In this document: positions 45,095 through 63,726 of the stretch, piece by piece
How positions within the stretch are numbered: position 1 is the stretch's first letter
How the letters are laid out: the number at the start of each line of letters is the position of its first letter
Source: Candidatus Hecatella orcuttiae
GTDB taxonomy: Archaea; Thermoproteota; Bathyarchaeia; Hecatellales; Hecatellaceae
Assembly (NCBI GenBank): GCA_002011035.2
Contig: MTLY02000003.1
Coordinates: 544,001 to 608,000, forward strand
Length of the DNA stretch: 64,000 bases
Direction of reading: 5' to 3'
The notes under the pieces: generated by a model
Databases searched by the model: none
The model's input: the letters and a program-made list of their open reading frames with translations, nothing else
What the model was told of the DNA's origin: nothing
Made by a program: the position numbers and the translations under genes

Positions 45095-45155
45095 AACGCT
45101 GAGGAACCGGAGCTAAAGGGGTTGCTCCAAAGGACTGAAGATTTTTCCTGTCAGT

Positions 45156-46205
45156 TTATGATAGGTTGACAATCACCTTAATCGGATTCTCTTTTCTATT
45201 TTTTTCAGGATTGCTGAATATTTCAAACGCCTCGTTTATGTTTTCGAGCGCAATTTCATGGGTTACGAAGTCTAGCAGATTCACGTTACGAGTTTTCACA
45301 AGTTCAAGAGCTCTTCTTATGTGGTTCGTCGACCCTGGGTTTAGAACTCCGATAATAGTTCTTTCTAAGGATGTTACGTAGCTGAGGTTTATTTCCACCG
45401 GTTTACTTACAATCGCTACTTGAACATATCTCCCAGAAGGTTTGATAGACTCGAGTGTTGATGTCACAGTGGCTGGAACTCCAGCAGTTTCTAATCCCAC
45501 GTCCACGCCAGCTCCCTCGGTCAAATTCATAACCTCCTTTACCACGTTTACTTCTCCCTTGGCATTAATTACATGGTCTGCTCCGAATTTTCTAGCCAAT
45601 TCCAAGGGTTTTTCCCTTATGTCCACACCTATCACTTTGGAAGCTCCGGCTAGTTTTGACGCGATAAGCGCTGATAATCCTATAGGGCCTAGGCCTGACA
45701 CCAGCACGGTGAAACCTAAGCTTACTCCACCTCTTTCAGCAGCATAAAACCCTGTAAGAAACATGTCGGGGACCAATACCGCCTGCTTAGGATCCATGTT
45801 TTCAGGGATTTTCACCAGAACTCTCTCGGCATGGGGAACCCTCATGAATTGAGCAAAGGCCCCATCATAATTCAAGCCGAAGAGTATGCGACGCTCACAT
45901 AGTTGCTGTTTTCCAGCTGTGCAGTATTTGCAGACGCCGCATGAAGCCACATAAGAGCCGATGACATTGTCCCCCACTTTAAACATCCTTACGCCCTGAC
46001 CTACTTGGAAAACTTTGCCTGCGTACTCATGTCCAAGGATCAGAGGCGTCTTGGCCGGTATGTGGCCGAGGTAAGCATGCAGATCGGTTCCGCATACAGC
46101 GCAATGCTTGACTCTGACTATAACTTCTCCAAGAGATGGAGGGCCAGGAGTGGGAGTCTCCTCAACTCTGAGGTCATTTGGATTGTGAAGGACTGCTGCT
46201 TTCAA
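45156..46205 (-). CDS. Zn-dependent medium-chain alcohol dehydrogenase
   Basis: CGTD, GHE, CGVCKYC...C, GLGPIG. Confidence 0.92.
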   Translation of the reverse strand: MKAAVLHNPNDLRVEETPTPGPPSLGEVIVRVKHCAVCGTDLHAYLGHIPAKTPLILGHEYAGKVFQVGQGVRMFKVGDNVIGSYVASCGVCKYCTAGKQQLCERRILFGLNYDGAFAQFMRVPHAERVLVKIPENMDPKQAVLVPDMFLTGFYAAERGGVSLGFTVLVSGLGPIGLSALIASKLAGASKVIGVDIREKPLELARKFGADHVINAKGEVNVVKEVMNLTEGAGVDVGLETAGVPATVTSTLESIKPSGRYVQVAIVSKPVEINLSYVTSLERTIIGVLNPGSTNHIRRALELVKTRNVNLLDFVTHEIALENINEAFEIFSNPEKNRKENPIKVIVNLS

Positions 46206-46232
46206 GGCACAGATTAATGGAATCTGAGATGT

Positions 46233-47471
46233 TTATATATTTTTTCTAAGCGCCTTCATGGACGGAGCTATGGTCTTCGGTTTTTTTACCATTTTCGAGT
46301 AGGTTTCCACCGTTTTGAGGCCGCTGCCGGTCAGCATGCAGAGGACTCTATCATTCTTATCTATTAATCCCTCATCCAACATTTTTTTGGTACCGGCAAC
46401 TGACGCCGCGGAAGAAGGCTCCACGAAGAGGCCCTCTATTTTAGCTATCCACGACGCAGCTTCAACGATCTGCTGGTCTTTAATGGTTTCAGATAAACCG
46501 CCTGTTTCTCTCAGAGCTTTCAAAACAAGCTTCCCTTTTAGTGGATATCCGATCATCAAACCTTCAGCTATGGTTTTAGGCTTTCTAACATACCTTATTT
46601 CATTCCGACCTTTTTTGTAAGCTTTTGCAATGGGTGCGCATCCTTCAGGCTGAATGCATACGAGTCTAGGAATCTTTGAAATCCAACCTATCTGAGCAAC
46701 TTCACTGAAGCCTTTTCTGCAGCCTAGCAACCCGCTGCCTGTCCCTACGGGGTGAACCACCCATTCAGGTGGGTCGTTGTTGAATTGCTCGCAGATTTCA
46801 TGTCCGATGGTTTTCATTCCTTCTGTCACGTAGGGATTCGTTTGGAAACCGCAATAATACCATCCGAACTTCTGACAGGCTTCCCTAGCGATATCGTAAG
46901 AATCTTTCCTAGTCCCCTTTACTCGGAAGACGGATGCTCCATTCATCATGGCTTGGATAATTTTGCCGAGGCTGGCGTAGGAGGGTGTGAAAATGTAACA
47001 TTCTAATCCCGCCTTCGCTGCATAGGCTGCGACGGATGTTGCAGCGTTACCTGAGGAATCTATCGCCAAGGTGGCGGCTCTAAGCTCGCTAGCCCTTGAA
47101 ACCATCAGGGCTGAGCCGCGGTCCTTAAAAGAGCCGGTAGGAAACATGTAATCCAGTTTGAAAAAAAGGTTTTTGATGCCTATCTTTTCGCTTAATTTTT
47201 TCGCCTTATAAATAGGGGTCAGTGTCTCCCCCAAACTTACCTTGCGACTAACATCGATAGGGAGAAACTCGGCGTAACGCCACATAGTCTTCGGTCTTCT
47301 GAGTATGTCGGCGATCTTCACTCTGTTTTTTATGGACTCGTAGTCTAACATGACATCAAGCAGTCCACCGCACTTAGAGCAAAAATACGTGGTTTCTCTA
47401 AGGTCATGAACAGCGTCGCAATTCAAACACCTCAACGACACTGCATAATTCTGCCGGCATCCACCTGTCAC
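46233..47471 (-). CDS. Threonine-synthase-like PLP enzyme with N-terminal Zn ribbon
   Basis: PTGSFKDRG, SSGNA, PVGTGS, EPSSA, LTGSGLK. Confidence 0.88.
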   Translation of the reverse strand: MTGGCRQNYAVSLRCLNCDAVHDLRETTYFCSKCGGLLDVMLDYESIKNRVKIADILRRPKTMWRYAEFLPIDVSRKVSLGETLTPIYKAKKLSEKIGIKNLFFKLDYMFPTGSFKDRGSALMVSRASELRAATLAIDSSGNAATSVAAYAAKAGLECYIFTPSYASLGKIIQAMMNGASVFRVKGTRKDSYDIAREACQKFGWYYCGFQTNPYVTEGMKTIGHEICEQFNNDPPEWVVHPVGTGSGLLGCRKGFSEVAQIGWISKIPRLVCIQPEGCAPIAKAYKKGRNEIRYVRKPKTIAEGLMIGYPLKGKLVLKALRETGGLSETIKDQQIVEAASWIAKIEGLFVEPSSAASVAGTKKMLDEGLIDKNDRVLCMLTGSGLKTVETYSKMVKKPKTIAPSMKALRKNI

Positions 47472-47630
47472 TTTCAGAAATCCCTCAACATATTTTTTGT
47501 CCAGAGAATTTATACTCTTTCACGGAGACCTTAACTCTAAAATTTGACCTTTTACCGAATGGCTTTTGTTTGCTTTTGAAGCATCTTTATCTACCGAATC
47601 CGGAAAAGGCTTTTAAGAAAGCTGGTTCTC

Positions 47631-48938
47631 TCAGCTTAAAGCCTTCAGCGAATCGTCAAGTCTCTCCAATACGGTTTTTATCTGTTCCTCCGTTATGCAG
47701 AGGGGCGGCTGCAACCTTATGACGTTACCGTAGACTCCGCCTACGTTCACCAGTACGCCTTTTTTCGCCATGTTTACTCTGATATTATTCGCCTCCTCTT
47801 TTGCAGGCTCCTTGGTTTTCTGGTCTCTAACAAGCTCGACTCCGAGCATCAAACCTCTTCCTCGCACATCCCCGATCAACGGATATTTTTCTGCAAGTTC
47901 TCCGAGTCCTTCCATAAAGACTCTTCCTCGTTGAGCACTCTTCTCCACCAATTTTTCTTCGAGCAAAACGTTGATGTTTTCCAGCGCTCCGGCACATACG
48001 ATAGCGTTGCCGCCGTATGTTCCACAGTGGTCAACAGAAACGAAGACTTCAGCTACTTCGTCAGTTACTATGGTTGCTGCGATGGGTAAGCCGCTTGCAA
48101 TGCCCTTGGCAACAGCCATTATGTCCGGCTCTACGTTGAAGAGTTCCACAGCGAACATTTTACCCGTTCTACCGAAACCGGTTTGTATTTCGTCGGCGAT
48201 ATAAAGGGCGCCATGTTCCTTGAAAATCTTCACTACCACTGAAAGGTATTCATCGGGCGGAACGATGATTCCCCCCTCCCCGAATATTGGCTCAGAAATG
48301 AAGGCGGCGACATCGCCTGTGGTTTCGTACTTAATCAAGTTTTCCACGTAACTTGCGCATTGGAGACCACATTCAGGGTATGTCAGCCTGTAAAAGCAAC
48401 GATAACAGTAGGGAGCTGGAGCGTGGATCACGCCCGGATGCACGTAGGTGCTGAGGCCTTGCTTGTACTTATTTTGGCCTGTCAGAGCCATGGCGTAGGA
48501 TGTTCTCCCATGAAAAGACCCCGTTAACGCAACAATTTCAGCGCCGCCTCTTCCACGTTTTTTGAAGGCGTATTTTTTGGCGAGCTTCACAGCGTTCTCA
48601 ACAGCCTCAGCTCCCGAGCTGACGAACATGGTTCTATTTAAGTTTCCCGGAGTTATCTGCGCCAGTTTCTCGGCCAGCAGAGATGTAGGTATCAAATAAT
48701 AGTCCCAGGAGACATGCCATATTTTGGCTACCTGCTCCTGTATGCTCTTAACGATACGAGGATGACAGTATCCAACGTTTGTAACTGAATATCCGCCATG
48801 GCAGTCGATGTACTCTTTACCGTTGACGTCGGTCAGCACCGCGTTCTTTCCTTTCTCAAAAACTATAGGATGTCTTCCCGTCGTATCTCCAGGCAAAATA
48901 TACCTTGTTTGTTTCTTAATAATCTCCTCACTAGACAT
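47631..48938 (-). CDS. Class III (omega-amino acid) aminotransferase
   Basis: SGAEAVENA, SFHGRT, DEIQTGFGRTG, AKGIASG. Confidence 0.93.
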   Translation of the reverse strand: MSSEEIIKKQTRYILPGDTTGRHPIVFEKGKNAVLTDVNGKEYIDCHGGYSVTNVGYCHPRIVKSIQEQVAKIWHVSWDYYLIPTSLLAEKLAQITPGNLNRTMFVSSGAEAVENAVKLAKKYAFKKRGRGGAEIVALTGSFHGRTSYAMALTGQNKYKQGLSTYVHPGVIHAPAPYCYRCFYRLTYPECGLQCASYVENLIKYETTGDVAAFISEPIFGEGGIIVPPDEYLSVVVKIFKEHGALYIADEIQTGFGRTGKMFAVELFNVEPDIMAVAKGIASGLPIAATIVTDEVAEVFVSVDHCGTYGGNAIVCAGALENINVLLEEKLVEKSAQRGRVFMEGLGELAEKYPLIGDVRGRGLMLGVELVRDQKTKEPAKEEANNIRVNMAKKGVLVNVGGVYGNVIRLQPPLCITEEQIKTVLERLDDSLKALS

Positions 48939-49030
48939 GGTATCATCCTATTGAAATATGGTAGACTGATACGTTATTAAAATATTTTTATACAGATTTC
49001 GTACTAAAAAATGGCGGGTGGCTGGATGAG

Positions 49031-50287
49031 ATGGAGGTCAAAAAAAAGATTCTTCAACATATTGATCAACATAAAAACGAAATCGTGGAGTTTCTGCGAA
49101 GTCTGATAAGAATACCCAGCGTAACCGGCTCGGAGAAAGAAATTTCAAATTTTATCGCAAAAAAACTTGATTCTCTCGGTCTTGAAGTTGATGTTTGGGA
49201 GCCGAACTTAAACGAGCTGAAGAAACATCCAGGATACGTATCGGTGGAGATGGACTATAAAGACCGGCCTAACGTGGTAGGCGTATGGAAGGGTGCCGGC
49301 GGAGGAAAATCTCTGCTTTTCAACGGGCATCTGGATGTGATTAACGCTGATCCCAGCGTATGGAAACATAACCCTTGGGGCGGAGAGATCGAAAATGGCC
49401 AACTGTATGGTAGAGGAGCGTCTGACATGAAAAGTGGATTAGCCGCCATGACAATGGCCTTAGCCTGCATAATCGAAGTAGGAATCAGACTCAAAGGCGA
49501 TGTAATCTTGGAATATGTGGTAGACGAAGAGTTCACTGGCCACGGAACATTAGACTGTATCTTGAGAAACTATAAGGCGGATGCGGGAGTAAGCTGCGAG
49601 GCAAGCGACCTTGAAGTTCAGCCAGCAGCCACGGGCAGTATGTGGTTTGAAATAAAGGTCGACGGCAAATCAGCTTCCATGTCGAGGATATGGGAGGCGG
49701 TAAGCGCCATCGAAAAGGGTCATGTGGTCCACAAGGCAATTCAAGATTATCAAACTGTCAGATTCGAGAAACGTCATCCCTTATATCCGGATCCAAAGGG
49801 TGCTCTTGCCTGTTTTGCAGGCATTTTTCAAGCTGGGTCTTATCCTAGTTCTCCTCCTGATACTTGTACAATAAAAGGGAGGATGGGGGTTCTGCCTAAC
49901 GAGGATCCCGCCGATGTTAAACGGGAATTCATAGAATACATTGAAAATGCCGCGAAAAAGGATCCTTGGCTCAGGGAACATTTACCTAGGGTGGAGTTTA
50001 CAGGTTATTATGCTGAGCCAGCGGAAATTCCAGCAGATCATCCCATCTGTACCACTGTAATTAGCTCTTTCGAGGAAGCGACCATGAAAAAGCCTGTTGT
50101 ACGCGGTCATGAAGGCGCAGCTGACACTCGATTCCTGATAAAGTATGGTGCAACGCCTACTGTCATTTTTGGTCCTGGAACCATAACGCAGATGCATGCC
50201 ACAGACGAGTGGGTGAGAATAGAGGATTTGATAACCTCGGTAAAAGTTCTAGCTTTAACGATTCTCAACTGGTGTGGTTGGGAGTAA
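49031..50287 (+). CDS. ArgE/DapE-family M20 deacylase
   Basis: NGHLDV, GRGASDMKSG, VDEE, MHATDE. Confidence 0.92.
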   Translation: MEVKKKILQHIDQHKNEIVEFLRSLIRIPSVTGSEKEISNFIAKKLDSLGLEVDVWEPNLNELKKHPGYVSVEMDYKDRPNVVGVWKGAGGGKSLLFNGHLDVINADPSVWKHNPWGGEIENGQLYGRGASDMKSGLAAMTMALACIIEVGIRLKGDVILEYVVDEEFTGHGTLDCILRNYKADAGVSCEASDLEVQPAATGSMWFEIKVDGKSASMSRIWEAVSAIEKGHVVHKAIQDYQTVRFEKRHPLYPDPKGALACFAGIFQAGSYPSSPPDTCTIKGRMGVLPNEDPADVKREFIEYIENAAKKDPWLREHLPRVEFTGYYAEPAEIPADHPICTTVISSFEEATMKKPVVRGHEGAADTRFLIKYGATPTVIFGPGTITQMHATDEWVRIEDLITSVKVLALTILNWCGWE

Positions 50288-50462
50288 AGCGGTATACGCT
50301 CAATTAATCTTACATAGAGCTGAGTGCTGTAGCAATTTCTGAGACAATCATAAGCTGACTGATTTTTCATAAATTTTCTATCAACAGCCTTTTTGATTTT
50401 TTTTAGTTATCAAGGAGTTAGTGAACAATAAATTTAATTAATGGAATCCCTTAATTTTTATC

Positions 50463-51782
50463 ATGAGTCGCGTAGCCATTTCGAAACTCGTTTCACCTGT
50501 CGATGAAAGCAAAATATTTGATGCCGTCAAGTCAGTACTCGACAAGCTTGGAGGCATAGAGAAGTTCGTCAGTCCAGGGGAAATGGTTTTAATAAAACCG
50601 AATTTTGTAAGTCCCAGACCACCACCGGTCACAACTGACATCCGCGTTATTAAAGCATTGGCCCTTCAGATAAAAGAAACTGGAGCTAAGCCCATAATCG
50701 GCGAGGGATCCTCAGCTATGACTCATTGGTGGCGCGAAGGAATGACTACAGAGGATGTCATGGACCTCTTGGGCGTTTCAGACATGGCCAAAGAGATAGG
50801 GGTTGAACTCATACCTTTCGATAGAAAAGGTGTATTCAAAAGCCGAATGACGCTGATACCCGACGCTGTTTTGATGAAAAAGGCGGAGATAGCTGAATTG
50901 GCGTTGGAAGCTGATAAAATAATACCTTTGCCGGTTTTAAAAACAAGCATGGAAGGCGGGGGTATAACCTGTTGCATAAAAGTTTTGCATGCACTTACCA
51001 ATGCTCAGAGTGACAGGCTGCGTTGGCATCGTTCAGACCTATGGCAAAAGCTGATTGATCTCTTCAGACTTGTAAAGCCGAAAATACCTTTCTGCTTGGT
51101 CGACGGCCTTGTAGGCATGGAGGGCGATGGGCCGATCCACGGTACGCCCGTGAACATGAATTTGATTCTGGCAGGCGATGACCCTGTATCCACAGATGCC
51201 ATAGCTGCTAAGATTATAGGTTTTGAATATCCCCATCGAGAGATAGGACCGATAGCGTTGGCGCATTCTCAAGGATTAGGAATGGGGGATCCTTCTCAAA
51301 TCGAGGTGATGGGAGAGAAAGTCGATGAGGTTAAAAAGAGGTTTCTGATGGCTTCATGCGAAATAATCACTCCCCCCTTTGAAAACGTTCTAGTCTACGA
51401 AGGTGCAACTTGCAGGGGGTGTAAAGCTTGGATAAAATTCTTGTTATACATGTTGAGAGACACAGGGATCTTCGAAGACTTGAAGAGGCTGGATAAAAAA
51501 CTCTTCTTCTTTACAGGGCTTGAACCGCCCTTCCCAACAGATTTGGAGGAACTTCGAGAACTTTCTAAAAAAGGAGTGATACTGGTGTACGGTGACTGTT
51601 CAACGAATACCACAAAACATTCTTACTGGGTTCTGAAGCAAGGAGAATTGAAAGGGAAAATTATCCTCATACCGGGTTGCCCGCCTTTTGATAGCGCCCA
51701 GCAAGCAACACAAATCAGGGACGCATTAGGTCTGGAAACCACGGAAAAGGAAGAGGAAGCCTTCAAATACGTTCCAACATGA
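50463..51782 (+). CDS. DUF362 Fe-S protein with C-terminal CxxC...GDC...GCPP domain
   Basis: LIKPN, LPVLKT, DGLVGMEGDGP, DPVSTD. Confidence 0.85.
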   Translation: MSRVAISKLVSPVDESKIFDAVKSVLDKLGGIEKFVSPGEMVLIKPNFVSPRPPPVTTDIRVIKALALQIKETGAKPIIGEGSSAMTHWWREGMTTEDVMDLLGVSDMAKEIGVELIPFDRKGVFKSRMTLIPDAVLMKKAEIAELALEADKIIPLPVLKTSMEGGGITCCIKVLHALTNAQSDRLRWHRSDLWQKLIDLFRLVKPKIPFCLVDGLVGMEGDGPIHGTPVNMNLILAGDDPVSTDAIAAKIIGFEYPHREIGPIALAHSQGLGMGDPSQIEVMGEKVDEVKKRFLMASCEIITPPFENVLVYEGATCRGCKAWIKFLLYMLRDTGIFEDLKRLDKKLFFFTGLEPPFPTDLEELRELSKKGVILVYGDCSTNTTKHSYWVLKQGELKGKIILIPGCPPFDSAQQATQIRDALGLETTEKEEEAFKYVPT

Positions 51783-51863
51783 AGTTTCCAAAATACGTCG
51801 AAAACAAAATCTTTATTAAAATTTAGAAAAATTCTCATTGGTGGGAAAAAGGGATTCGCATCG

Positions 51864-51980
51864 ATGGCTAACAGCACCATGAGATGCGCCGGATGCGGCA
51901 GAGAAATAGCTAAGGGGCAGGAGTTTATCATACGCGGTAAAGCATACTGTTTAAACTGCCGATTTCCCATCGGAGGGTAA
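51864..51980 (+). CDS. 38-aa zinc-finger microprotein
   Basis: Below the ORF-track cutoff: MANSTMRCAGCGREIAKGQEFIIRGKAYCLNCRFPIGG. Confidence 0.6.
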   Translation: MANSTMRCAGCGREIAKGQEFIIRGKAYCLNCRFPIGG

Positions 51981-52188
51981 ACCTCTGTATCGTCTTTACT
52001 TTTATACTAAGCTCACCATTAATTTTCTCTTTTAAGCTGAATATTACCTAACGATCTTGCGGCCATCCACCTTATTTGTGGATAACCGGGGAAGTTAACG
52101 TCGGAGTGGAATGGGGGATCCGAGGCCAGCTTGAAGACTTGTTTACGAACCGTAAAACTTAAATTCCCTGTGTAGTGATCGCATCCCT

Positions 52189-53058
52189 ATGAGGAAGTTT
52201 TTTAGACCTAGAGAGTATTTTAAACCCGAAACCCTCGAGGAGGCTTTGAATTTACTTGCTAAATATGGGGAATCGGCGAGACCTATTGCAGGCGGCACCG
52301 ATCTGCTGGTTAAGAAGCCGCCTGAAGTTGAGTATTTAATAGACATCGCTTCCTTGCCCTTGGATTACATCAAAAACGATGGGGAATACCTGAAGATCGG
52401 CTCTTTGTCCACCTTCCACAGCATAGAGACTTCCAGTCTGTTTAAGGAAGGCGCGTATCGGATATTGGCGGAATCGGCTCATGATTTTGGCCAAGCCACC
52501 GTTAAGAATATGGCGACCATCGGGGGTAACGTGTGCAGCGCTGTTCCTTCCGCGGATTTTCCCCCGGTTTTGATGGTCTTAGACGCTAAAGCTAAGATAG
52601 TCAGTCTGGCTGGGGAGAGGATTGTTTCCATGGAAGAATTTTTTGCGGGCGTAAGGAAAACCGTTCTGAGGAGCGACGAGTTGCTTGTAGAGTTTCAGAT
52701 ACCTAAACCTCCGCCCCATACAGGAGCGGCATTCTACAAGCTGGGAAGGACCAGCGTGGACATCGCCCTTGTGAACGCGGCCGCACGAATAACCTTAAGG
52801 TCGGACGGTGTCTGCGAAGATGCGAGGATAGCTCTAGGCGCAGTCGCTCCTACCCCTATCAGAGCCAAGGGGGCAGAAAAATTACTTCGGAAAAAGGAGA
52901 TAGACGAGGCTCTTGTGGAAGAAGCAAGTCAAACAGCGTCCGAAGAGACGAAGCCTATAAGTGATGTTCGTTCCTCAGCCGAGTATAGAAAGGAGATGAG
53001 TAAGGTTTTGGTAAAGAGGGTATTACAAAAATCCCTGAAAAGGGCGAAGGGAGAGTGA
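52189..53058 (+). CDS. Xanthine-dehydrogenase-family FAD subunit (CoxM-like)
   Basis: AGGTDL, ATIGGN, PSAD, SDVRSSAEYR. Confidence 0.93.
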   Translation: MRKFFRPREYFKPETLEEALNLLAKYGESARPIAGGTDLLVKKPPEVEYLIDIASLPLDYIKNDGEYLKIGSLSTFHSIETSSLFKEGAYRILAESAHDFGQATVKNMATIGGNVCSAVPSADFPPVLMVLDAKAKIVSLAGERIVSMEEFFAGVRKTVLRSDELLVEFQIPKPPPHTGAAFYKLGRTSVDIALVNAAARITLRSDGVCEDARIALGAVAPTPIRAKGAEKLLRKKEIDEALVEEASQTASEETKPISDVRSSAEYRKEMSKVLVKRVLQKSLKRAKGE

Positions 53059-53065
53059 AGAAAGA

Positions 53066-53551
53066 TTGGGGGATTCTTTGATCAAATTAAATGTGAACGG
53101 GGAAATCCACGAGGTGAGGGTAAAGCCGTATTGGACGCTGCTCCGCGTTCTCAGAAACGAGCTGGGTCTAACTGGGGCAAAGCTGGGCTGTGGCAGAGGG
53201 GAATGTGGCGCTTGCACTGTCCTCATGGATGGGAAGCCGATTCTTTCCTGTTTGACACTGGCGGCTAGGGCTGAAGGTAAGAAAATAGTCACCATCGAAG
53301 GATTGGCGGAAGGACTCAAACTACATCCTTTACAGGAGGCTTTTATTAAAAACGGCGCAATCCAATGTGGTTTTTGCACATCTGGAATGATACTTTCCGC
53401 CAAAGCCTTGTTAGACCGGAATCTCAACCCAACCGAAGAAGAGGTAAGAGAAGCCCTTTCAGGTAACCTCTGCAGGTGTACCGGCTATGTTAAGCCGGTT
53501 AAAGCAGTACTGGAAGCCGCTGAAATAATGAGGAAAGGTGGAAGTAGGTGA
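53066..53551 (+). CDS. Xanthine-dehydrogenase-family 2x[2Fe-2S] subunit (CoxS-like)
   Basis: GCGRGECGACT, QCGFC, NLCRCTGY. Confidence 0.95.
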   Translation: MGDSLIKLNVNGEIHEVRVKPYWTLLRVLRNELGLTGAKLGCGRGECGACTVLMDGKPILSCLTLAARAEGKKIVTIEGLAEGLKLHPLQEAFIKNGAIQCGFCTSGMILSAKALLDRNLNPTEEEVREALSGNLCRCTGYVKPVKAVLEAAEIMRKGGSR

Positions 53552-55824: not shown

Positions 55825-55944
55825 ATCTGCCAACGTTTATCATCTATCATCTTTAGCAGCGAAGTTTCCCTCGCAGAGTTCAGCAAGAAGCTGATATACA
55901 GCGGTTATGATCGAATTTGCCGCGCCTTCCCTTTTCAAGAGCTG

Positions 55945-56754
55945 TTAACGAGTTCTTTTTTCGAGAAGCCCTATGAAGACGCTTAAACCGATGGTTTTGC
56001 TTATGATGAAAATCAGGATAGTGTAGATGAGAATCAAAAAGATCGAAGCAGCTGCGAAGGTTGGGTCAACTTGCTCTCTCATGAAGGTTAAAAGCACCAC
56101 TGGCAGAATTAACGCATCGCTACGGGAGAGAAACACTGAAGCGGTTACCTCGTCTAGAGAGATCACAAAGGCAAAGACTGAAGCTGCTATGATGCCGGGC
56201 TTTATCATGGGGAGAGTAATTCTTCTGAACGCCCGTAGACCGCTCGAACCTAGGACTTTTGCCGATTCCTCTAAGGTTATGTCAAACCCGCTTAGAGTGG
56301 CTGCGATTGCGCGGATAGAAAAGGGTATTGTCAAAATCACGTGAGCTATGGTTAGGTTGAAGAAGCTTATGTAGATTCCCAGGATTCCTCTGAGAAGAAA
56401 AAGTAACGCCGACCCTGTGACAACAGCGGGAACTATTAATGGCATAAAGAATAACATATTCAAAAAATCTTTCCCTCTGAAATTATAACGAACCATACCG
56501 TAGGAGGTTAAAAGCCCTGTTACCACGGATATCGAAACTACCACAGCAGCCAAAATAAGGCTGACTCTGAAGGCGTTGATGAAAACCTCTTCCTGGATAA
56601 ATTTATTGACCCATTTCAGGGAAAAGCCTGGAGGAGGAAATGTGGGCGTGGTCTCCGGGCTGAAAACGATTCCCACCGTCAAAGGCAGAGGAATGAGAAG
56701 GAAGACGACGCTGAATGCTAATACGATTTTAACTAAAATTTTGTGAAGTTCCAT
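55945..56754 (-). CDS. ABC permease (PotC-like)
   Basis: LEESAKVLGS EAA loop, SLDE. Confidence 0.88.
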   Translation of the reverse strand: MELHKILVKIVLAFSVVFLLIPLPLTVGIVFSPETTPTFPPPGFSLKWVNKFIQEEVFINAFRVSLILAAVVVSISVVTGLLTSYGMVRYNFRGKDFLNMLFFMPLIVPAVVTGSALLFLLRGILGIYISFFNLTIAHVILTIPFSIRAIAATLSGFDITLEESAKVLGSSGLRAFRRITLPMIKPGIIAASVFAFVISLDEVTASVFLSRSDALILPVVLLTFMREQVDPTFAAASIFLILIYTILIFIISKTIGLSVFIGLLEKRTR

Positions 56755-56763
56755 CTTTTCTTC

Positions 56764-57669
56764 TCACCTGCCGCCTACGGTCAATCTCGCTGGCATTTTT
56801 TTGCTTGTGAAATAGTTAACTCCGTACCATATTGCCAGAGTATAGGTGAGAAGAACGAAAGCCATGGCAGCGCCCAGTGGATAATTAAGAGTGAACATGA
56901 ATCTCTCGTATATGAAATTGGCTATGAGTGTCACTACCCCGCCGCCTACTATCATGGGAGTGACAAAAGAAGCCACGTTCCACGCGAAAAGAGCTGAGAA
57001 CACTCCGATGACTCCTGGAAGACTGAGAGGCAGAGTGACCCTGATAAAAGTTCTCACAGGGTCTGATCCCAAGGTTTTTGCAGCGTCTTCTAGCGTGGGG
57101 TCGATGTTTTGAAGGGGTCCTATCAGGAAAAGAACAGCGAATACAGCACCCCATTGGCCTAAAGCTATAGTCACAGCGGCTTCATTGTACAGCAGTATGA
57201 CTCTCGACATTCCTAAAAGGCTGAAAAGGTTGTTGATGGTTCCATAATATCCGAGGAGGACTATCCAAGAATAAAGGCGAATGAGGAACGATATAAGAAA
57301 TGAAATGGTCACCGCTACGATGACGAAGCTTCTAGTTTTGGAAGGTTTTGCTCTGACGATCCAAAAGCTTAAGGGATACCCTAAACCTAGGGCGATGAGT
57401 GTCGCTAGGAGAGCTACTCTCAACGTAACTATCATGACCCTTTGGTAAGCGGGTTCAGTGAATATCAGTATATAATTTTCTAGAGTAAACGCTTTCTCTA
57501 TTTGTAAACCTACTAAATGCCTATAAAAACTGAGTTCTCCCATCATAGCTAAGGATACTATGAAAAAACCCATTATAATAAATACGGGGAAGAAAACCAT
57601 GAATTTTAGTTTTTGAAAACTGAATATCGCCTTCAACCTTCCAGTATTAGAGAATCTTCGCATTGCCAT
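56764..57669 (-). CDS. ABC permease (PotB-like)
   Basis: IRLYSW, LEDAAKTLGS, LPLSLPG. Confidence 0.88.
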   Translation of the reverse strand: MAMRRFSNTGRLKAIFSFQKLKFMVFFPVFIIMGFFIVSLAMMGELSFYRHLVGLQIEKAFTLENYILIFTEPAYQRVMIVTLRVALLATLIALGLGYPLSFWIVRAKPSKTRSFVIVAVTISFLISFLIRLYSWIVLLGYYGTINNLFSLLGMSRVILLYNEAAVTIALGQWGAVFAVLFLIGPLQNIDPTLEDAAKTLGSDPVRTFIRVTLPLSLPGVIGVFSALFAWNVASFVTPMIVGGGVVTLIANFIYERFMFTLNYPLGAAMAFVLLTYTLAIWYGVNYFTSKKMPARLTVGGR

Positions 57670-58703
57670 TCAACGACCACCGTTTCACCTGGAGGAAAGA
57701 ACTCTTCTTCAATGCTGACCGCTGAAATCGGAGTGTCCTTCACATCTATACAATAGGTTTTGAACATTCCCTTGAAAGATGCGCTCTGAACACTGCCTAT
57801 GAAACTGTTCTTTTCTTTGACTTCCCCTTTACACCTGATCTTAATTCTTTCCGGCCTTACAACCACTGTGACCTTATCGTTTTCTTTAAGCTTTGAACCT
57901 GAATTTAACATGGAATGTAGAATGAGACCTTTCTCCGTTCGGACGCACACGTAGGGCGCTTGTATTTTTGTCACTCTCCCTTCAAAAAGATTCGCCTCAC
58001 CGATGAAATCAGCTACAAAGCTGGATTTCGGCAACTTATAAATCTCATGCGGATTTCCAACCTGCACTATCTTGCCTTTTCTCATCACTGCGATGACGTC
58101 GGACATGGTAAGGGCTTCCCCTTGGTCGTGGGTGACATAAACAGCGGTTACGCCTATCTGGTTGATGATCCTTTTTATCTCCAACTGCATGGCTAAACGC
58201 AGCTTCAGATCGAGGTTGCTGAGGGGTTCATCAAGTAGTATTATTTTAGGTTCAACAACCAAAGCTCTTGCCAACGCTACCCGCTGCTGTTCTCCCCCGC
58301 TCAGTTGGTAGGGGTACCTCTGTTCATAGCCGGGAAGCTTTACTATTTCTAAAATTCGTGCAACTTTGTCTCTAATTTTGTCTTTGCTCAGCTTTCGTTC
58401 CTCTAATCCGTAAGCTATGTTCTTGAAGACGGTCATATGGGGGAAAAGCGCGTAATTCTGAAATACCATGCTGAGGTTTCTTTTGTAGGGAGGAAGGTTG
58501 TCGACCCGGCGGCCGTCCATGTAAATACTGCCACTATCCTGCTTGGTTAAGCCAGCTATTATCCTAAGCAACGTCGTCTTTCCACAGCCGCTAGGCCCCA
58601 AGAGGGTGAGAAACTGTTTTTCTTTCAAGCTGACGGAAACGTCGTCGAGCACTTTAACTCCATCATAATATTTGACGATACCTTGGACACGCATTGCCTC
58701 CAA
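57633..58703 (-). CDS. ABC ATPase (PotA-like, with TOBE domain)
   Basis: GPSGCGKT, VFQNYALFPH, LSGGEQQR, LLDEP. Confidence 0.93.
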   Translation of the reverse strand: MEAMRVQGIVKYYDGVKVLDDVSVSLKEKQFLTLLGPSGCGKTTLLRIIAGLTKQDSGSIYMDGRRVDNLPPYKRNLSMVFQNYALFPHMTVFKNIAYGLEERKLSKDKIRDKVARILEIVKLPGYEQRYPYQLSGGEQQRVALARALVVEPKIILLDEPLSNLDLKLRLAMQLEIKRIINQIGVTAVYVTHDQGEALTMSDVIAVMRKGKIVQVGNPHEIYKLPKSSFVADFIGEANLFEGRVTKIQAPYVCVRTEKGLILHSMLNSGSKLKENDKVTVVVRPERIKIRCKGEVKEKNSFIGSVQSASFKGMFKTYCIDVKDTPISAVSIEEEFFPPGETVVVEWQCEDSLILEG

Positions 58704-58957
58704 TTTCTGCTCTCCTTTTTATAAATTCTTGAAAGCAAATTAAAAAGCTTACTGCTATTTGACGGTGTGAAATGATCAAATTTGACACAAATACATCTAC
58801 CTAAACGAATTACGATGAATTTTGTATGCTTTTTCTTAACGAAAATTCAAAAACCGGCTGCTCTTTTTCATTTAAAGCTTCTTTACGGAAAACCATTAAA
58901 AACTACAGAATGGAAAAAATGGGCAGGAATAAATATCATAAAAAAAGGGGGAGAGAT

Positions 58958-60100
58958 TTAACCTTTCACTCCTAGAAGTGGACGGATTTCTTCGTCAAAC
59001 CGTGCAGTCCACTCTTCCATTTTCTCCCGCGCCACCAGCGGATCGTATGCATACGCGTATTTTTCAATCTCTTCCTTGGTCAAGGCGTAGGGATACGCAG
59101 CGGCCTCTGCATTTATGTTTGTTGGGAACTGGCCTAGTCGTGCAGCTGATTCTTCGTTTATCTCTCGGTCCAAAGCTAGGTTCACGTATTTGAAGGCCCA
59201 TTCTTTTCTGGGACTGTTTGTCACGTGCAGAGTCCATTCTCCTAAGTGAACTGGATGCTTCTCGGAGGCGGCGGCGAATGCCACGGCAACCCCTCTCTCC
59301 AGTAATGGTAGGAGGCTGTCGTTTGTTGAACCTAGGTGCACGTTGATTTCTCCCCTTTCGATAGAACTGATGATGTCCCCTACTGTTGGGGTGATGAGCG
59401 TGATGTTCGGCGCTATCTTTTTCAGCAATTCCCATCCGGGCTCTGGATTATATTCGTCTCCACCCATAGCATAAGCCAGCCGCAGCAAGGTTACTCCGCC
59501 ATAATAGCCAATGGGAACTATTCCTATCCTGTATTGAGGGTCAGCAAGGTCTTCCATGGACACCGGCTCGTCAACTAGATCGGTACGATATAGTGTTCGT
59601 ACGTGAGACATGAAATTGGCTACACCGTAGATTTTACCATTGTATACCGTCATGTATTCGTCGGGGATTTCTTCCAAATTCGGCATTTCCTCCACCGGGA
59701 AGGGGGCTATGATGTTGTCTATAGCGGCTTCCAAACCTGCGACATGGGTAGCACCCCAGACATCGTTGAAATAGTTAGGTAGGTCAGCTCTGATCTTGGC
59801 CAGCCCCTCTGTGGAATAAGCCTCTACCTCATACCTTACAGGAATACCGAATTCTGCTTCGAACATTTCGTTAATATATTCAAACGCTGCCCTGGATTTG
59901 GGGTCTCCCCAAGCTAAGAGTGTTATAAAGTCCGGCTTCGGTACTGGCGTAGGCGTGGGTGTAGGCGTCGGTGTTGGAGCCGGGGCTGGGGGCCTTGTGG
60001 CCTGCCAGGCGGCGTAGCCGCCCACACCAGCCACCACCACAGCCACAACCGCAGCAACACCGTATTTTAGGGCGCTTCTACGAGATTCGGAAGATGTCAA
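58958..60100 (-). CDS. ABC substrate-binding protein (PotD/polyamine-like) with twin-Arg-like anchor and Pro/Thr linker
   Basis: SRRSALKYG, a TM helix and (PT)n linker, then LAWG and A.KYVN; heads the Pot-type cassette. Confidence 0.82.
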   Translation of the reverse strand: MTSSESRRSALKYGVAAVVAVVVAGVGGYAAWQATRPPAPAPTPTPTPTPTPVPKPDFITLLAWGDPKSRAAFEYINEMFEAEFGIPVRYEVEAYSTEGLAKIRADLPNYFNDVWGATHVAGLEAAIDNIIAPFPVEEMPNLEEIPDEYMTVYNGKIYGVANFMSHVRTLYRTDLVDEPVSMEDLADPQYRIGIVPIGYYGGVTLLRLAYAMGGDEYNPEPGWELLKKIAPNITLITPTVGDIISSIERGEINVHLGSTNDSLLPLLERGVAVAFAAASEKHPVHLGEWTLHVTNSPRKEWAFKYVNLALDREINEESAARLGQFPTNINAEAAAYPYALTKEEIEKYAYAYDPLVAREKMEEWTARFDEEIRPLLGVKG

Positions 60101-60252
60101 GAACTTTCACCGGTTTAGTCTATTACCAGATATCTTATATATAAAAGTTTCGAGAAAAAATAGATGGAAATATTAATCAGCATCCCCATTAGAAAATCTT
60201 ATATAGATAATGAAATGAAAATTATATCCCCTCATAATTTGGGGGATTTCCT

Positions 60253-60900
60253 TTGTCCAAAGAAGAAGTTTTGGAAAAGCTACGCAGAAGTTTTCTCAGC
60301 TACGATGAGGAAGCCACTCGAAAGGCTGCGGCGGAGGCTCTCGCTGCGGGAGTAGACCCCTTGGAGGCTGTAAGCGTCCTTACAGAGACTATCAGAGAGC
60401 TAGGTGAGAAATTTTCTAAGATGGAAATCTTTCTCCCCGACTTGATGCTGGCGGCAGATGCCATGAGAGCTGGATTAACCGTGTTGAAGCCGGAGTTGAT
60501 GAAAAGAAAGGCGGAGACCAGAACTCTAGGTAAGATTCTAATAGGTGTGGTGAAGGGGGACATCCACGACATCGGTAAAACCATTCTGGTCACGATGCTA
60601 GAGGCCGAGGGTTTCGAAGTGATCGACTTGGGAAAAGATGTTCCCATAAGAAAATTTGTGGAAGAAGCTCAAACTCACAACCCTGACATCATTGCCGCTT
60701 CCGCTTTGATGACGACGACGAGGCCTGAGCAAAGAGGACTTATTGAATATCTTAAACATCTGGGCTTCAGGGACAAATATAAGGTTATGGTGGGAGGCGG
60801 TGCGGTGACAAGTCAGTATGCCGAAGAGATAGGCGCTGATGGATACGGTGAAAACGCCCCTGAAGCTGTGGAAGTTGCAAAAAAACTGATTTCTAAGTGA
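60253..60900 (+). CDS. Methyltransferase corrinoid protein (MtmC/MttC family)
   Basis: GDIHDIGK, DLGKDVP, SALMTTT, VGGG, IGADGY. Confidence 0.95.
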   Translation: MSKEEVLEKLRRSFLSYDEEATRKAAAEALAAGVDPLEAVSVLTETIRELGEKFSKMEIFLPDLMLAADAMRAGLTVLKPELMKRKAETRTLGKILIGVVKGDIHDIGKTILVTMLEAEGFEVIDLGKDVPIRKFVEEAQTHNPDIIAASALMTTTRPEQRGLIEYLKHLGFRDKYKVMVGGGAVTSQYAEEIGADGYGENAPEAVEVAKKLISK

Positions 60901-60914
60901 AGGGGAGTTCAGTT

Positions 60915-62303
60915 TTGTCGAGGTCTAGGGTGTGGGAGCTTTGGCGGAGGGCTGAGACGGGTCCTCTCTGCCCGGAGCGGGAGTTTGACCTGAAGAGGTT
61001 TTATCCGGCTGTGAAGAGGCTGGTGAAGGAGTACGACATAACATACGACCCTGAAACCGTCATCCCCACCGACAACACCCTCATCGACGACGTTTTCAAG
61101 GCGGGGATCGATCTACTGACCGAAGTGGGGGTGCTTTGCCCGGATACCGAGAAGATTATTCAGTTGGAGGAGCGGGAGGTCAAAGAATCCTTAGCTACCC
61201 TCTCCGGTGAAATGACGGTAGGGGAAGGAAAGGACGCCTGCCTTCTGAAACATAGAAAGATGGAAGACCATGAGCCTGCACGCGTCTTCGCAGGGCCTTC
61301 AGGAAATCCCATATCCGAGGAGATGGCTATCCCCATATACCAGTCTTGCGCTCAAGAACCAACCGTCGACCTGCTTATGTACGGTACACCTACCACAATT
61401 GCGGGTATGGTGTCAAAGGACGGTTCGCCCATGGAGATGTACGCGGAGGTCGCCAATGTACGCTGGCTGAGGGAGGCTGCCAGAAGAGCAGGAAGACCGG
61501 GTATGTTCATTATCGGTTCTGGAGCAGTAGGTGTGGCACCCGCAATACTGGCCAGCTTGGTAGAGAACGGCTATAGGAAAACCGACGGAATACAGCTCGC
61601 AGGACTACCGCAGTTAAAAATACCTTACTTTGAACTTTGCAAGGCTGAATTCTGCATCGAGTACGGGTGCAGAGGCTGGGTTACCTCCCCAGCTTACATA
61701 GGGGGGTTACCGGGCGGACCTGAAGCGGCTGCCGTCACAGAGGTAGCTGAGTGCATAGCTGCCAATCTTGTGTTTCGCACACCTTGGGTCTGTGTGGACA
61801 TTCACGACCTTCTGTATCCGCCCGGCACGTCGAGGAGGGATGTAATGAGCATGGTGAACTTGGTTACAGCTGCTCTTGCAAAGCATACCAAGTTGATTGT
61901 CTCCACCCTCTGCGACCGCGTTTATGCAGGATGTTGCACGGACATGGCTTTCTATGAATTTGCAGTGGCAGCCCTTGGAGCTGCTGTTGCTGGAGGAGAC
62001 CCTATGAGTGGATGTTGCAGAGAAGGCAGGTACACCGACTACGTAACCGGTATGGAGGGAAGATGCACAGGTGAGATTGCTAAATCGGTTACAGGAATGA
62101 GGAGGGTGGATGCAAACGACATAGCGAAGGCCATCTTAGCCAAGTATGAAGACCGCCTTCCACCGAAAGGGAAACCACCCATTGGGAAGGAGTTTCGAGA
62201 ATGTTACAATCCGAAAACGGTTACACCTAACAAAGAATATGTAGAACTTTATGGGAAAATTAAGAAAGAACTGGAAGATATGGGGATTAGCTACAAATTT
62301 TAG
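60915..62303 (+). CDS. Monomethylamine-methyltransferase (MtmB)-family protein without pyrrolysine, paralogue 1
   Basis: RAETGP, GRPGM, GGPE, GKEF.ECY...TVTP; uninterrupted ORF; TTG start at 60915 after AGGGGAG. Confidence 0.9.
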   Translation: MSRSRVWELWRRAETGPLCPEREFDLKRFYPAVKRLVKEYDITYDPETVIPTDNTLIDDVFKAGIDLLTEVGVLCPDTEKIIQLEEREVKESLATLSGEMTVGEGKDACLLKHRKMEDHEPARVFAGPSGNPISEEMAIPIYQSCAQEPTVDLLMYGTPTTIAGMVSKDGSPMEMYAEVANVRWLREAARRAGRPGMFIIGSGAVGVAPAILASLVENGYRKTDGIQLAGLPQLKIPYFELCKAEFCIEYGCRGWVTSPAYIGGLPGGPEAAAVTEVAECIAANLVFRTPWVCVDIHDLLYPPGTSRRDVMSMVNLVTAALAKHTKLIVSTLCDRVYAGCCTDMAFYEFAVAALGAAVAGGDPMSGCCREGRYTDYVTGMEGRCTGEIAKSVTGMRRVDANDIAKAILAKYEDRLPPKGKPPIGKEFRECYNPKTVTPNKEYVELYGKIKKELEDMGISYKF

Positions 62304-62509
62304 GTTTGTGACGCTGAGGGTAGGTGTGGAGTTGTCGAGGTCTAGGGTGTGGGAGCTTTGGCGGAGGGCTGAGACGGGTCCTCTCTGCCCGGAGCGGGAG
62401 TTTGACCTGAAGAGGTTTTATCCGGCTGTGAAGAGGCTGGTGAAGGAGTACGACATAACATACGACCCTGAAACCGTCATCCCCACCGACAACACCCTCA
62501 TCGACGACG
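60915..62509 (+). repeat. Perfect 178-bp direct repeat (60915-61092 = 62332-62509) at the 5' ends of the two mtmB-like genes
   Basis: Direct comparison at a 1417-bp offset; the remainder diverges extensively. Confidence 0.93.
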
Positions 62510-63726
62510 CCTTCAAAGCCGCCATCGACCTACTACTGGAAGTAGGTGTCCTTTGCACGGACACAGAAAAAATAATCAAGCTTGAAGAAGGAGAGATCAA
62601 GGAAGCTCTTGCCACTTTCCCAAAGGAGATCACCGTCGGCGAAGGCAAGGATGCTGTTACTCTAACTCATAGGAAGATCGAAGACGATAAGCCTCCTAGG
62701 ATCATGGGAGGACCCAACGGTAGCCCTATATCCGAGGAGATGGCGATTCCCATCTATCAAAGCTACATCCAAGAACCTATGCTCGACATACTTTTTTATG
62801 GGACGCCGACGACGGTGGAGGGTATGGAGGTGAAAGCCGGCTCCCCCGTGGAGTTGTACGCTGAAATAGCCAATGTCTACTGGATGAAAGAAGCTGCGAG
62901 GAGAGCTGGAAGACCCGGCATATGCACTCTTGGAGCCGCGGGGGCGACTGCGGCTCCCCAGATACTGGCCAGCTTAGTGGAGGGTGGTTACAAAAAAACC
63001 GACGCTATGCAACTCAGTCCTCCTCCTCAATTGAAGGCTCCTTACTTCATGCTCTGTGAAGCAGCCCATTGCATTGAATATGGGTGCAGAGGCGTAGTCA
63101 TCCCCAGTTCCATCATAGGCGGCCTAGCTGGAGGGCCTGAGGGCGCCGCCATAACCAACATTGCTGAATGCATAGCCTTCGCCATACTTTTCAACACTCC
63201 TTGGGTGCATCCCTTCATGCCTGAGGCACTCCATGCCCCTGGATGCTCCGCTTATCCTCCGGAAATGGCTATGGAACTTCTGTCAATAGCCGCTTTAGTC
63301 AAACATGCGAATCTCATAATTACCAGTGGTGCGAACTCTAGGACCTTCTCAGGACTTTGCACTGATACGACCTTCTATGAGATTGCAGCACCCGCTATAG
63401 GCAAAACAGTGATAGGCGCCAACCTCCATGCAGGTTCAGCGAGGAAAGGCTACTACACCGATTACATGGCAGGCATATCAGCTCGGTGCACCGGAGAAGT
63501 AGGGTGGGCCGCTGTGGGGCTGAAACGGGAGGATGCCAACGAGATGGTTAAAACAATTATGGCAAAATACGAAGATATACTGCCACCCAAAGGAACGCCG
63601 CCCGTTGGAAAGAAATTTCAAGAGTGCTACGACGTCCAAACTGTCACACCGACAAAGGAACATGAAGACTTATATAAGAAAGTGAAAAAAGAGCTTGAAA
63701 ACATAGGGTTAGCCTTTAAATATTGA
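62332..63726 (+). CDS. MtmB-family protein without pyrrolysine, paralogue 2
   Basis: Same motifs, GGLAGGPEG, GKKFQECYD; TTG start at 62332 matching paralogue 1. Confidence 0.9.
   Translation: MSRSRVWELWRRAETGPLCPEREFDLKRFYPAVKRLVKEYDITYDPETVIPTDNTLIDDAFKAAIDLLLEVGVLCTDTEKIIKLEEGEIKEALATFPKEITVGEGKDAVTLTHRKIEDDKPPRIMGGPNGSPISEEMAIPIYQSYIQEPMLDILFYGTPTTVEGMEVKAGSPVELYAEIANVYWMKEAARRAGRPGICTLGAAGATAAPQILASLVEGGYKKTDAMQLSPPPQLKAPYFMLCEAAHCIEYGCRGVVIPSSIIGGLAGGPEGAAITNIAECIAFAILFNTPWVHPFMPEALHAPGCSAYPPEMAMELLSIAALVKHANLIITSGANSRTFSGLCTDTTFYEIAAPAIGKTVIGANLHAGSARKGYYTDYMAGISARCTGEVGWAAVGLKREDANEMVKTIMAKYEDILPPKGTPPVGKKFQECYDVQTVTPTKEHEDLYKKVKKELENIGLAFKY

Follow-up and report, generated by a model that had tools for sequence, protein, structure and literature searches.

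A pyrrolysine-free MtmB pair with its own corrinoid protein and importer in Candidatus Hecatella orcuttiae, and its probable independence from an adjoining molybdenum-hydroxylase cluster

The MttB family of methyltransferases has radiated onto quaternary amines. Here we examine two members of another methyltransferase family, MtmB (PF05369), that lack pyrrolysine (Pyl) and are encoded, together with a corrinoid protein and an ATP-binding cassette (ABC) importer, within a block of genes at positions 45156–63726 of a 64,000-nt stretch of the archaeon Candidatus Hecatella orcuttiae (genome of 1.75 Mb in three contigs, C1–C3, 97% complete; the stretch, hereafter the window, is C3:544001–608000). 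In Methanosarcina barkeri, Pyl202 is the residue that defines monomethylamine activation by MtmB1, which works with the corrinoid protein MtmC (1L2Q/1NTH); the window pair aligns with MtmB1 over its full length and is likewise paired with a corrinoid protein, but carries isoleucine or leucine in place of Pyl202. The literature on Pyl-free MtmB proteins is thin, and the only one with a known function is MtqB of Methanococcoides methylutens Q3c, described in 2026, which, according to the accessible text of that description, demethylates tetramethylammonium and choline and acts weakly on monomethylamine (PMC13044021). This makes out of date the statement in the first-pass annotation of this DNA that no substrate is known for a Pyl-free MtmB. 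MtqB and MtqC resemble the window genes in that a Pyl-free PF05369 member adjoins its cognate corrinoid gene and a second methyltransferase, of the MtbA type, is encoded separately; the window differs in having two tandem paralogues per corrinoid gene and a dedicated ABC importer, and its host is an McrA-less archaeon, not a methanogen. The Pyl-free MttB systems (MtgB, glycine betaine), as far as the accessible accounts describe them, also combine a Pyl-free homologue of methylamine methyltransferases with its corrinoid partner, a second methyltransferase and RamA, and thereby supply the Wood-Ljungdahl pathway with one-carbon units of methylated amines, but they belong to PF06253, whereas the window pair belongs to PF05369, and the host has 11 Pyl-free MtmB genes against three Pyl-free MttB genes.

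The window pair appears to represent a new, uncharacterised subfamily of Pyl-free MtmB proteins with its own corrinoid protein and importer, a system of a kind already known, and the locus offers a compact set of genes that could reveal a second substrate for such proteins. The first-pass annotation had read the whole block as one catabolic island in which the MtmB pair acts together with the enzymes encoded to its left. We consider it likely, instead, that the block consists of two independent units that lie side by side by chance, namely, a methyl-harvesting unit B (55945–63726, perhaps with the ferredoxin and aldehyde:ferredoxin oxidoreductase (AOR) genes beyond it) and a separate, conserved unit A (45156–55824). 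As a whole, the island fails co-conservation because unit A is kept without MtmB in five of five loci from relatives, and, conversely, none of 10 loci around MtmB homologues contains the gene families of unit A.

The MtmB pair, its corrinoid protein and its importer

The genes of unit B form two of the five transcription units of the block. A leftward unit, encoding the binding protein, ATPase and two permeases and convergent on the last gene of unit A, and a rightward unit, encoding the corrinoid protein, MtmB-1 and MtmB-2, diverge from a common AT-rich spacer of 152 bp, which bears out the divergent arrangement described in the first-pass annotation. The features of unit B are as follows.

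55945..58703, minus strand: ABC importer permeases and ATPase (PotC-like 55945–56754, PotB-like 56764–57669, PotA-like 57633–58703; BPD_transp_1, ABC_tran, TOBE_2)
58958..60100, minus strand: membrane-anchored solute-binding protein SBP_bac_8 (PF13416, 33.8 bits)
60253..60900, plus strand: methyltransferase-cognate corrinoid protein (B12-binding and B12-binding_2; TIGR02370)
60897..62303, plus strand: MtmB-1 (PF05369, 323.5 bits; likely start 60915 or 60930)
62251..63726, plus strand: MtmB-2 (PF05369, 328 bits; likely start between 62326 and 62347)

The sequence of the corrinoid protein scores above the cut-off of TIGR02370 (223.4 bits against 215.3) and contains the His-on motif DxHxxG as DIHDIG at residues 103–108. 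Both MtmB proteins match PF05369 over profile positions 3–450 of 450 without an internal stop (Pfam cut-off 25 bits), and residues 13–465 of MtmB-1 align with M. barkeri MtmB1 (1L2Q) with an E-value of 1.1e-61; the database gene call of MtmB-1 is 457 aa long. The earlier description of the pair as Pyl-free was correct: isoleucine in MtmB-1 and leucine in MtmB-2 stand opposite Pyl202, and the in-frame UAG that marks monomethylamine methyltransferase MtmB proper at this position is lacking in both open reading frames (ORFs). Taken together, the divergent operons, the TIGR02370 pass, the DxHxxG motif and the full-length MtmB matches argue for a substrate:corrinoid methyl-transfer unit, as proposed in the first-pass annotation. 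Further support comes from a second locus of the host, L019, in which a Pot-like importer is again divergent from a Pyl-free MtmB gene (ATPase 44.5% identical to that of the window; binding protein 45% over the N-terminal half); in its vicinity are a Pyl-MtbB gene with its corrinoid gene, a class III aminotransferase gene, and ferredoxin and AOR genes. The corrinoid genes found beside MtmB homologues in 6 of 10 related loci, the trans-acting partners encoded elsewhere in the genome and the amine:corrinoid methyltransferase activity of MtqB point the same way. The two paralogues share 63% identity and are sisters in the tree (support 1.0), and each is 32–33% identical to the genome's own Pyl-MtmB. 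Near their 5' ends, positions 62332–62509 are identical to 60915–61092 over 178 nt, with the remaining gene DNA 50–68% identical, which looks like recent gene conversion. Contigs of other sequencing runs break at this repeat.

We placed the pair in a tree (FastTree, midpoint-rooted) of 170 sequences, comprising the 12 MtmB paralogues of the host and 158 database proteins of 420–520 aa, a sample biased towards MtmB-1 matches from which fragments and the window's own database copies had been dropped. The pair falls within a 24-member clade (support 0.999) in which the residue at the Pyl position varies among I, L, E, R, W, F, T, V and Y. According to the accessible text of PMC13044021, MtqB branches near the Pyl-encoding MtmB proteins; in our tree, which holds no MtqB sequence, it is the host paralogue at C1:334240, not the window pair, that falls in a clade sister to the Pyl clade, so that the pair appears to belong to another clade than MtqB; a look-up of the clusters behind 10 representatives yielded no Methanococcoides entry. 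A search of 5.8 billion proteins returned, outside the host genome, nothing nearer than 12 metagenomic sequences with 44–47% identity. The MtmB family numbers 991 matches at E <= 0.001 among 1.84 billion representatives, of which 203 reach E <= 1e-30, and of 40 related genomes, three reach E <= 1e-60, at identities of up to 36%. A 207-aa protein (P0125, 48% identical) that had been taken for a Pyl-containing close relative was rejected, as it has glutamate at the Pyl position.

The neighbourhoods of homologues 37–47% identical to the window pair were compared in 10 of 11 loci, covering 104 of 117 ORFs (L089, with 11 ORFs, and two end fragments were left out). A corrinoid gene lies beside the MtmB homologue in 6 of these 10 loci, RamA is nearby in 3, an AOR gene in 2 and a class III aminotransferase in 1; a xanthine dehydrogenase (XDH)-family, M20, DUF362 or SBP_bac_8/Pot-type gene is found in none.

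The importer had been called Pot-type, a name that holds for the ATPase, which passes the potA subfamily model TIGR01187 (370.7 bits, cut-off 355.6) and misses the PotA equivalog NF006987 (377.5 bits, cut-off 482), but less well for the other components. The permeases have PotB and PotC as their best models but remain below both equivalog cut-offs (115.1 bits against 348 and 136.8 bits against 326, respectively), and the binding protein has no NCBIfam match. The transporter shares with E. coli PotABCD, the spermidine/putrescine system, a potA-model ATPase with a TOBE domain and permeases closest to PotB and PotC, but its binding protein shows no clear likeness to PotD or PotF in sequence. That protein is predicted to be extracytoplasmic, with an N-terminal hydrophobic helix as an anchor followed by a Pro/Thr-rich linker. 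Its best sequence match in the PDB is 4EDP (E-value 1.5e-7), one of six matches of which none is PotD or PotF; a word-index search of 5.8 billion proteins returned only the protein itself, and among 400 sampled genomes of the phylum, matches of 31–32% identity occur in three, along with one paralogue in the host. Two of the three loci of these distant homologues (L095 and L096; 3.5–4.2 kb) contain ABC transporter parts, with a carbamoyltransferase in L095, and no MtmB. The AlphaFold model, built from a 5-sequence alignment, is of low confidence (pLDDT 60.6, pTM 0.54), and Foldseek searches with it gave generic matches (TM 0.32–0.53) in which PotD ranked no better than iron-, sugar- or gamma-aminobutyrate-binding proteins. 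Contigs of other runs diverge at 59982–59991, within the Pro/Thr-rich linker, which suggests that linker-length variants of the binding protein exist in the population.

Unit A as a conserved cluster of its own

Unit A is made up of three transcription units. The aminotransferase, ThrC-like and alcohol dehydrogenase (ADH) genes run leftward, in this order, from a divergent spacer of 92 bp; the M20 and DUF362 genes run rightward out of the same spacer; and the FAD, 2Fe-2S and Mo subunits of an XDH-family hydroxylase follow rightward after a gap of 406 bp. All 15 genes of the block that had been listed in the first-pass annotation, with their coordinates, were recovered by the ORF listing and by Pfam and NCBIfam scans. 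The remaining features of the window considered here are the following.

45156..46205, minus strand: zinc-dependent ADH, unit A (Pfam ADH_N and ADH_zinc_N; threonine-dehydrogenase-like)
46233..47471, minus strand: ThrC-like pyridoxal phosphate (PLP) enzyme (PALP, 259.6 bits; NF006050, 358.4 bits, cut-off 303)
47631..48938, minus strand: class III aminotransferase, unit A (Aminotran_3, 398.7 bits)
49031..50287, plus strand: M20 ArgE/DapE-family deacylase, unit A (Peptidase_M20 and M20_dimer; TIGR01910, 275.5 bits, cut-off 217.6)
50463..51782, plus strand: DUF362 protein, unit A (PF04015, 140.5 bits)
51864..51980, plus strand: putative 38-codon ORF with two CxxC pairs (zinc-ribbon-like), read from the sequence, in the 406-bp spacer between the DUF362 and XDH genes
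52189..55824, plus strand: XDH-family Mo hydroxylase of three subunits, unit A (FAD 52189–53058, 2Fe-2S 53066–53551, Mo 53548–55824)
63932..64000, minus strand: 3' end of a 4Fe-4S ferredoxin gene (Fer4) that runs past the end of the window

The DUF362 protein, encoded by a single-copy gene in the host, is the best marker of the cluster, and orthologues with 55–62% identity occur in 8 of the 400 sampled genomes of the phylum. We examined the five of these loci that lie on long contigs (L111–L115, from genomes G298, G402, G304, G111 and G235), all of them from other families; the three on short contigs (G351, G414 and G293) were left out. In all five, the gene order is M20, divergent from zinc-dependent ADH, then DUF362, XDH Mo subunit, small ORF, FAD subunit, FeS subunit and class III aminotransferase. 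The identities to the window proteins range over 51–52% for M20, 49–55% for the ADH, 57–62% for DUF362, 48–53% for the aminotransferase and 55–58%, 40–45% and 37–39% for the FeS, FAD and Mo subunits, respectively, and in the reciprocal search, the window M20, ADH, DUF362 and aminotransferase proteins were the best matches in the host genome. The left half of the block holds orthologues of four genes of this archaeal cluster and an XDH-type operon. It differs from the cluster in its gene order, in the insertion of a ThrC-like gene and in the position of the Mo-cofactor maturation genes, which are about 37 kb away. In L113 and L111, the two loci with scanned flanks, the cluster is bordered by genes for XdhC, MoeA and a MobA-like nucleotidyl transferase.

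Within about 10 kb, none of the five loci gave a BLAST match to the MtmB, corrinoid or ThrC-like genes of the window or to its importer genes (permeases, ATPase and binding protein), and PF05369 was detected in none of the five genomes (92–99% complete). The ThrC-like gene, without a counterpart in these loci, is inserted into unit A in the host genome only. If unit A is independent, as we consider likely, then what the MtmB pair acts on is no longer constrained by the M20, aminotransferase, ADH and Mo-hydroxylase genes, and the suggestions of the first-pass annotation that the neighbourhood points to an N-methyl polyamine, an omega-amino acid or an N-heterocycle no longer follow. We found no publication naming both DUF362 and xanthine dehydrogenase, and no description of the cluster.

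On its own, unit A would be a Mo-hydroxylase-centred catabolic cluster for a probably unmethylated nitrogen compound, one that works without MtmB in other archaea. The hydroxylase has the full XdhABC domain set (FAD_binding_5 and CO_deh_flav_C; Fer2 and Fer2_2; Ald_Xan_dh_C and MoCoBD_1/2) and falls below the xanthine dehydrogenase equivalogs XdhA (NF043082; 636.5 bits, cut-off 780), XdhB (203.9 bits, cut-off 310) and XdhC (181.8 bits, cut-off 217); the models of 4-hydroxybenzoyl-CoA reductase (alpha subunit, 610.8 bits, cut-off 994.55) and glyceraldehyde dehydrogenase score similarly. The ADH lies under every equivalog cut-off (TIGR00692, 208.6 bits, cut-off 458), and so does the aminotransferase among the NCBIfam equivalogs. 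The ThrC-like enzyme has three paralogues in the genome, with 38–41% identity. For a genome of 1.75 Mb, the host carries an unusual load of Mo/W enzymes; besides four ThrC-like genes, it has six AOR genes and no fewer than six XDH-family operons, each of three subunits.

The block had also been described as visibly more AT-rich than its surroundings. It does lie below the genome mean (GC 0.4725 against 0.519, sd 0.036, over 1693 genome windows of equal length; 8.2nd percentile), but the deviation is mild, and the contrast comes from unusually GC-rich neighbours (0.56–0.58). Sub-blocks range from 0.45 to 0.51, the corrinoid-MtmB operon alone has 0.512, the Pfam scan turned up no integrases or transposases, either in the block's 15 ORFs or in those that flank it, and the repeat search found no direct repeats flanking the block; the compositional island signal is weak. 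The layout itself is not an assembly artefact. Four further DNA runs, each from a different study but possibly of one campaign, have contigs that reproduce the arrangement; among them is a 13,050-nt contig that covers 44427–57476, from the left border to the permease genes, with 0 differences. A search for RNA runs containing 58958–63726 listed none. One contig of a further run joins 49077 directly to 56798; this apparent skip was set aside because it rests on a 20-letter side.

A possible pathway and the competing explanations

The partners that unit B would need are encoded elsewhere. Judging by protein family, the binding protein and Pot-like transporter would take up a small methylated substrate (most likely a quaternary amine or a cationic N-methyl amine), and MtmB-1 and MtmB-2 would each transfer a methyl group from it, or from its successive demethylation products, to the Co(I) corrinoid protein. 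The presence of two paralogues may reflect successive demethylations or two related substrates. As the first-pass annotation observed, the window encodes neither a second methyltransferase nor a RamA-type activase: none of the genome's six MtaA/MtbA-like genes of the URO-D family, its single RamA gene, which adjoins one of these six, and its two MtrH matches falls inside C3:544001–608000. One of these six methyltransferases, or the stand-alone MtrH (C1:454250–455095; the other belongs to an MtrA/F/G/H operon at C2:110374–112574), would unload the methyl-Co(III) protein, and the RamA would re-activate the corrinoid when oxidised. The methyl group might then pass to tetrahydromethanopterin (H4MPT) directly, or via methyl-coenzyme M and reverse Mtr, and be oxidised or converted to acetyl-CoA through the Wood-Ljungdahl pathway and acetyl-CoA synthase.

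Upstream of the block lie Mrp-like antiporter genes and genes for Mch, Mtd, Ftr, formylmethanofuran-dehydrogenase-like subunits and CdhC/D/E. The earlier proposal that the methyl group feeds this neighbouring H4MPT and acetyl-CoA synthase set stands insofar as the genome encodes the route and its genes are next door, with roughly 6.5 kb of housekeeping genes, unrelated to either, between them and the block. The McrA C-terminal domain was not found in the 97%-complete genome, although the Mtr operon is present; therefore, the probable fate of the methyl group is oxidation or incorporation into acetyl-CoA, and not methane. On the other side, the ferredoxin and AOR (AFOR_N, AFOR_C) genes converge on MtmB-2 and span C3:607932–610268, reaching beyond the window, and are followed by an Lhr-type helicase gene.

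Several observations weigh against our reading of two independent units, one of which serves amine demethylation. The adjacency could mark a functional link of recent origin; the GC content is under the genome mean in both units; and the ThrC-like gene, inserted into unit A here, has a paralogue that adjoins another MtmB pair. One-to-one orthology of the XDH genes is unclear, as the window Mo subunit scores 408 bits against 461 for its paralogue at C3:710817–713096, and, with the comparison loci of unit A all coming from other families, none of 13 genomes of the host's own family has an MtmB match at E <= 1e-60. As to the substrate, a Pyl-free protein of the MtmB superfamily showed the top induction (log2 fold change +11.87) in 'Ca. 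Formimonas warabiya' grown on dichloromethane, in the accessible part of that report (PMC9768040), which makes a non-amine substrate possible in principle.

The closest competitor is the island itself, in which import and MtmB demethylation would be followed by breakdown of the backbone by the M20 deacylase, aminotransferase, ADH and Mo hydroxylase, with unit A recruited beside unit B. The low GC common to both units and the ThrC-like gene specific to the host version of unit A fit such a recruitment, and the units are only 120 bp apart, convergent at 55825–55944. Some support also comes from locus L019 in the same genome, where a class III aminotransferase gene and ferredoxin and AOR genes again accompany a Pyl-free MtmB gene; and AOR genes lie within 5 kb of three of the nine Pyl-free MtmB loci, against a mean of 0.40 under random placement (P ~0.01, with a threshold set post hoc; at a wider threshold, two loci share one AOR). 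The aminotransferases of the window and L019 are, however, only about 25% identical, and no operator-like repeat common to the nine spacers was seen by repeat search and reading, only AT-rich TATA-like boxes. Unit A stands without unit B in all five loci, in genomes that lack the MtmB family, and the XDH, M20, DUF362 and Pot-type families are absent from all 10 loci scanned around the nearest MtmB homologues. Given at least six XDH-type operons and nine Pyl-free MtmB loci in 1.75 Mb, a single chance adjacency is unsurprising, and we regard the island as unlikely.

Two further explanations concern the substrate. Under one, the pair would be an MtqB-type system for tetramethylammonium or choline, the paralogues taking successive methyl groups (choline, dimethyl- and monomethyl-ethanolamine) and the AOR oxidising the acetaldehyde left from the two-carbon backbone. 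MtqB, in the accessible text of PMC13044021, is the only characterised Pyl-free MtmB and is promiscuous, the importer is of a cation/polyamine-like type, ferredoxin and AOR genes converge on MtmB-2, and in locus L044, an EutQ-like gene and an AOR gene come after a 45%-identical MtmB homologue. This, too, we consider improbable: EutB was not found in the genome, the window pair is far from the host Pyl-MtmB in sequence, and in the tree from MtmB-1 matches, which holds no MtqB, it is C1:334240 and not the pair that takes the position sister to the Pyl clade. Under the other, the homologues would act on non-amines, drawing one-carbon units from another class of compound, for instance halomethanes or S- or O-methylated compounds, or would work in the biosynthetic direction, in line with the dichloromethane induction and the unconserved residue at the Pyl position in the clade. 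A dedicated binding-protein importer points, however, to a polar or charged solute and not to a volatile halomethane; the sole biochemistry that the accessible part of PMC13044021 offers for the family, that of MtqB, is on amines; and the one-carbon methyltransferases encoded beside host MtmB genes, Pyl-MttB, Pyl-MtbB and Pyl-MtmB, are methylamine enzymes, which leaves this explanation very improbable. We therefore retain the reading of two independent units, with amine demethylation in unit B.

The MtmB family across the genome and the phylum

The MtmB genes of the host, taken together, are of greater interest than the window locus alone. Among its 12 MtmB-family genes, only one has an in-frame TAG, the Pyl-MtmB at C1:354100–355452, and the 11 others are distributed over nine loci and five clades. 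By comparison, the MttB family has only four genes, one with TAG and three Pyl-free. In a first look, in which only four candidates per genome were scored, the host had 14 MtmB candidates and no other listed genome of the phylum more than four. A complete pyrrolysine cassette, consisting of tRNA-Pyl with a CUA anticodon and pylS/B/C/D-like genes, lies between Pyl-MttB and Pyl-MtmB at C1:347390–356225 (L017), each of the two methyltransferases with a corrinoid protein. Across the genome, TAG is not depleted and ends 26% (278/1054) of the stop-to-stop open frames of at least 250 codons.

An ABC importer lies near at least six of the nine Pyl-free MtmB loci; two of these importers are Pot-like, one is of the NMT1 type and two are of the Bmp/PnrA type, and one locus is flanked by both NMT1 and Bmp/PnrA genes. 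A corrinoid gene is present within the fetched locus in six of nine cases and directly adjacent in three (the window, L021a and L024). Most of the loci have catabolic genes in their vicinity, and several are situated among genes for cyclic amidohydrolases, dihydropyrimidine-dehydrogenase-like proteins, carbamate kinase, carbamoyltransferase and PLP enzymes. The largest clade comprises seven paralogues, mostly found among Bmp/PnrA nucleoside-type importers and the cyclic amidohydrolase, dihydropyrimidine-dehydrogenase-like and carbamate-kinase/carbamoyltransferase genes. One region, about 30 kb long (C1:504800–535545; L022 and L020), contains three Pyl-free MtmB genes along with Bmp/PnrA-type importers, dihydropyrimidine-dehydrogenase-like subunits, four or more cyclic amidohydrolases, carbamate kinase, carbamoyltransferase-like genes, two PLP enzymes, a URO-D gene accompanied by a corrinoid gene, and ferredoxin and AOR genes, and looks like a region for anaerobic N-heterocycle breakdown coupled to demethylation.

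These observations invite a broader proposal, which we put forward tentatively and hold to be possible rather than probable: that the MtmB family has radiated onto many N-methylated substrates in an McrA-less, Pyl-encoding archaeon; that the window pair, as a new subfamily with its own binding protein, acts on a substrate other than monomethylamine, tetramethylammonium or choline; and that the largest clade demethylates methylated nucleobases or N-heterocycles before ring breakdown. If so, there would be a large unrecognised pool of methylated nitrogen compounds that serve as one-carbon sources in anoxic sediments. The combination of 11 Pyl-free MtmB genes, importers, a Pyl system and the Wood-Ljungdahl pathway without McrA suggests that non-methanogenic archaea of marine and subsurface sediments may use many more methylated nitrogen compounds in this way than hitherto supposed.

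The MtmB family is found in 55 of the 400 sampled genomes of the phylum. In one family (f29), 27 of 32 genomes match it, and most of those listed have two stop-free copies, adjacent where both coordinates are given; a TAG-containing copy occurs in only three genomes of that family. On an 18.2-kb metagenome contig, L049, which holds the closest homologue with long flanks (47% identity), the neighbourhood is a methyltransferase 'supercluster' of four MtmB homologues, five corrinoid proteins, two URO-D genes, RamA, MtrH, an amidohydrolase and DUF1989.

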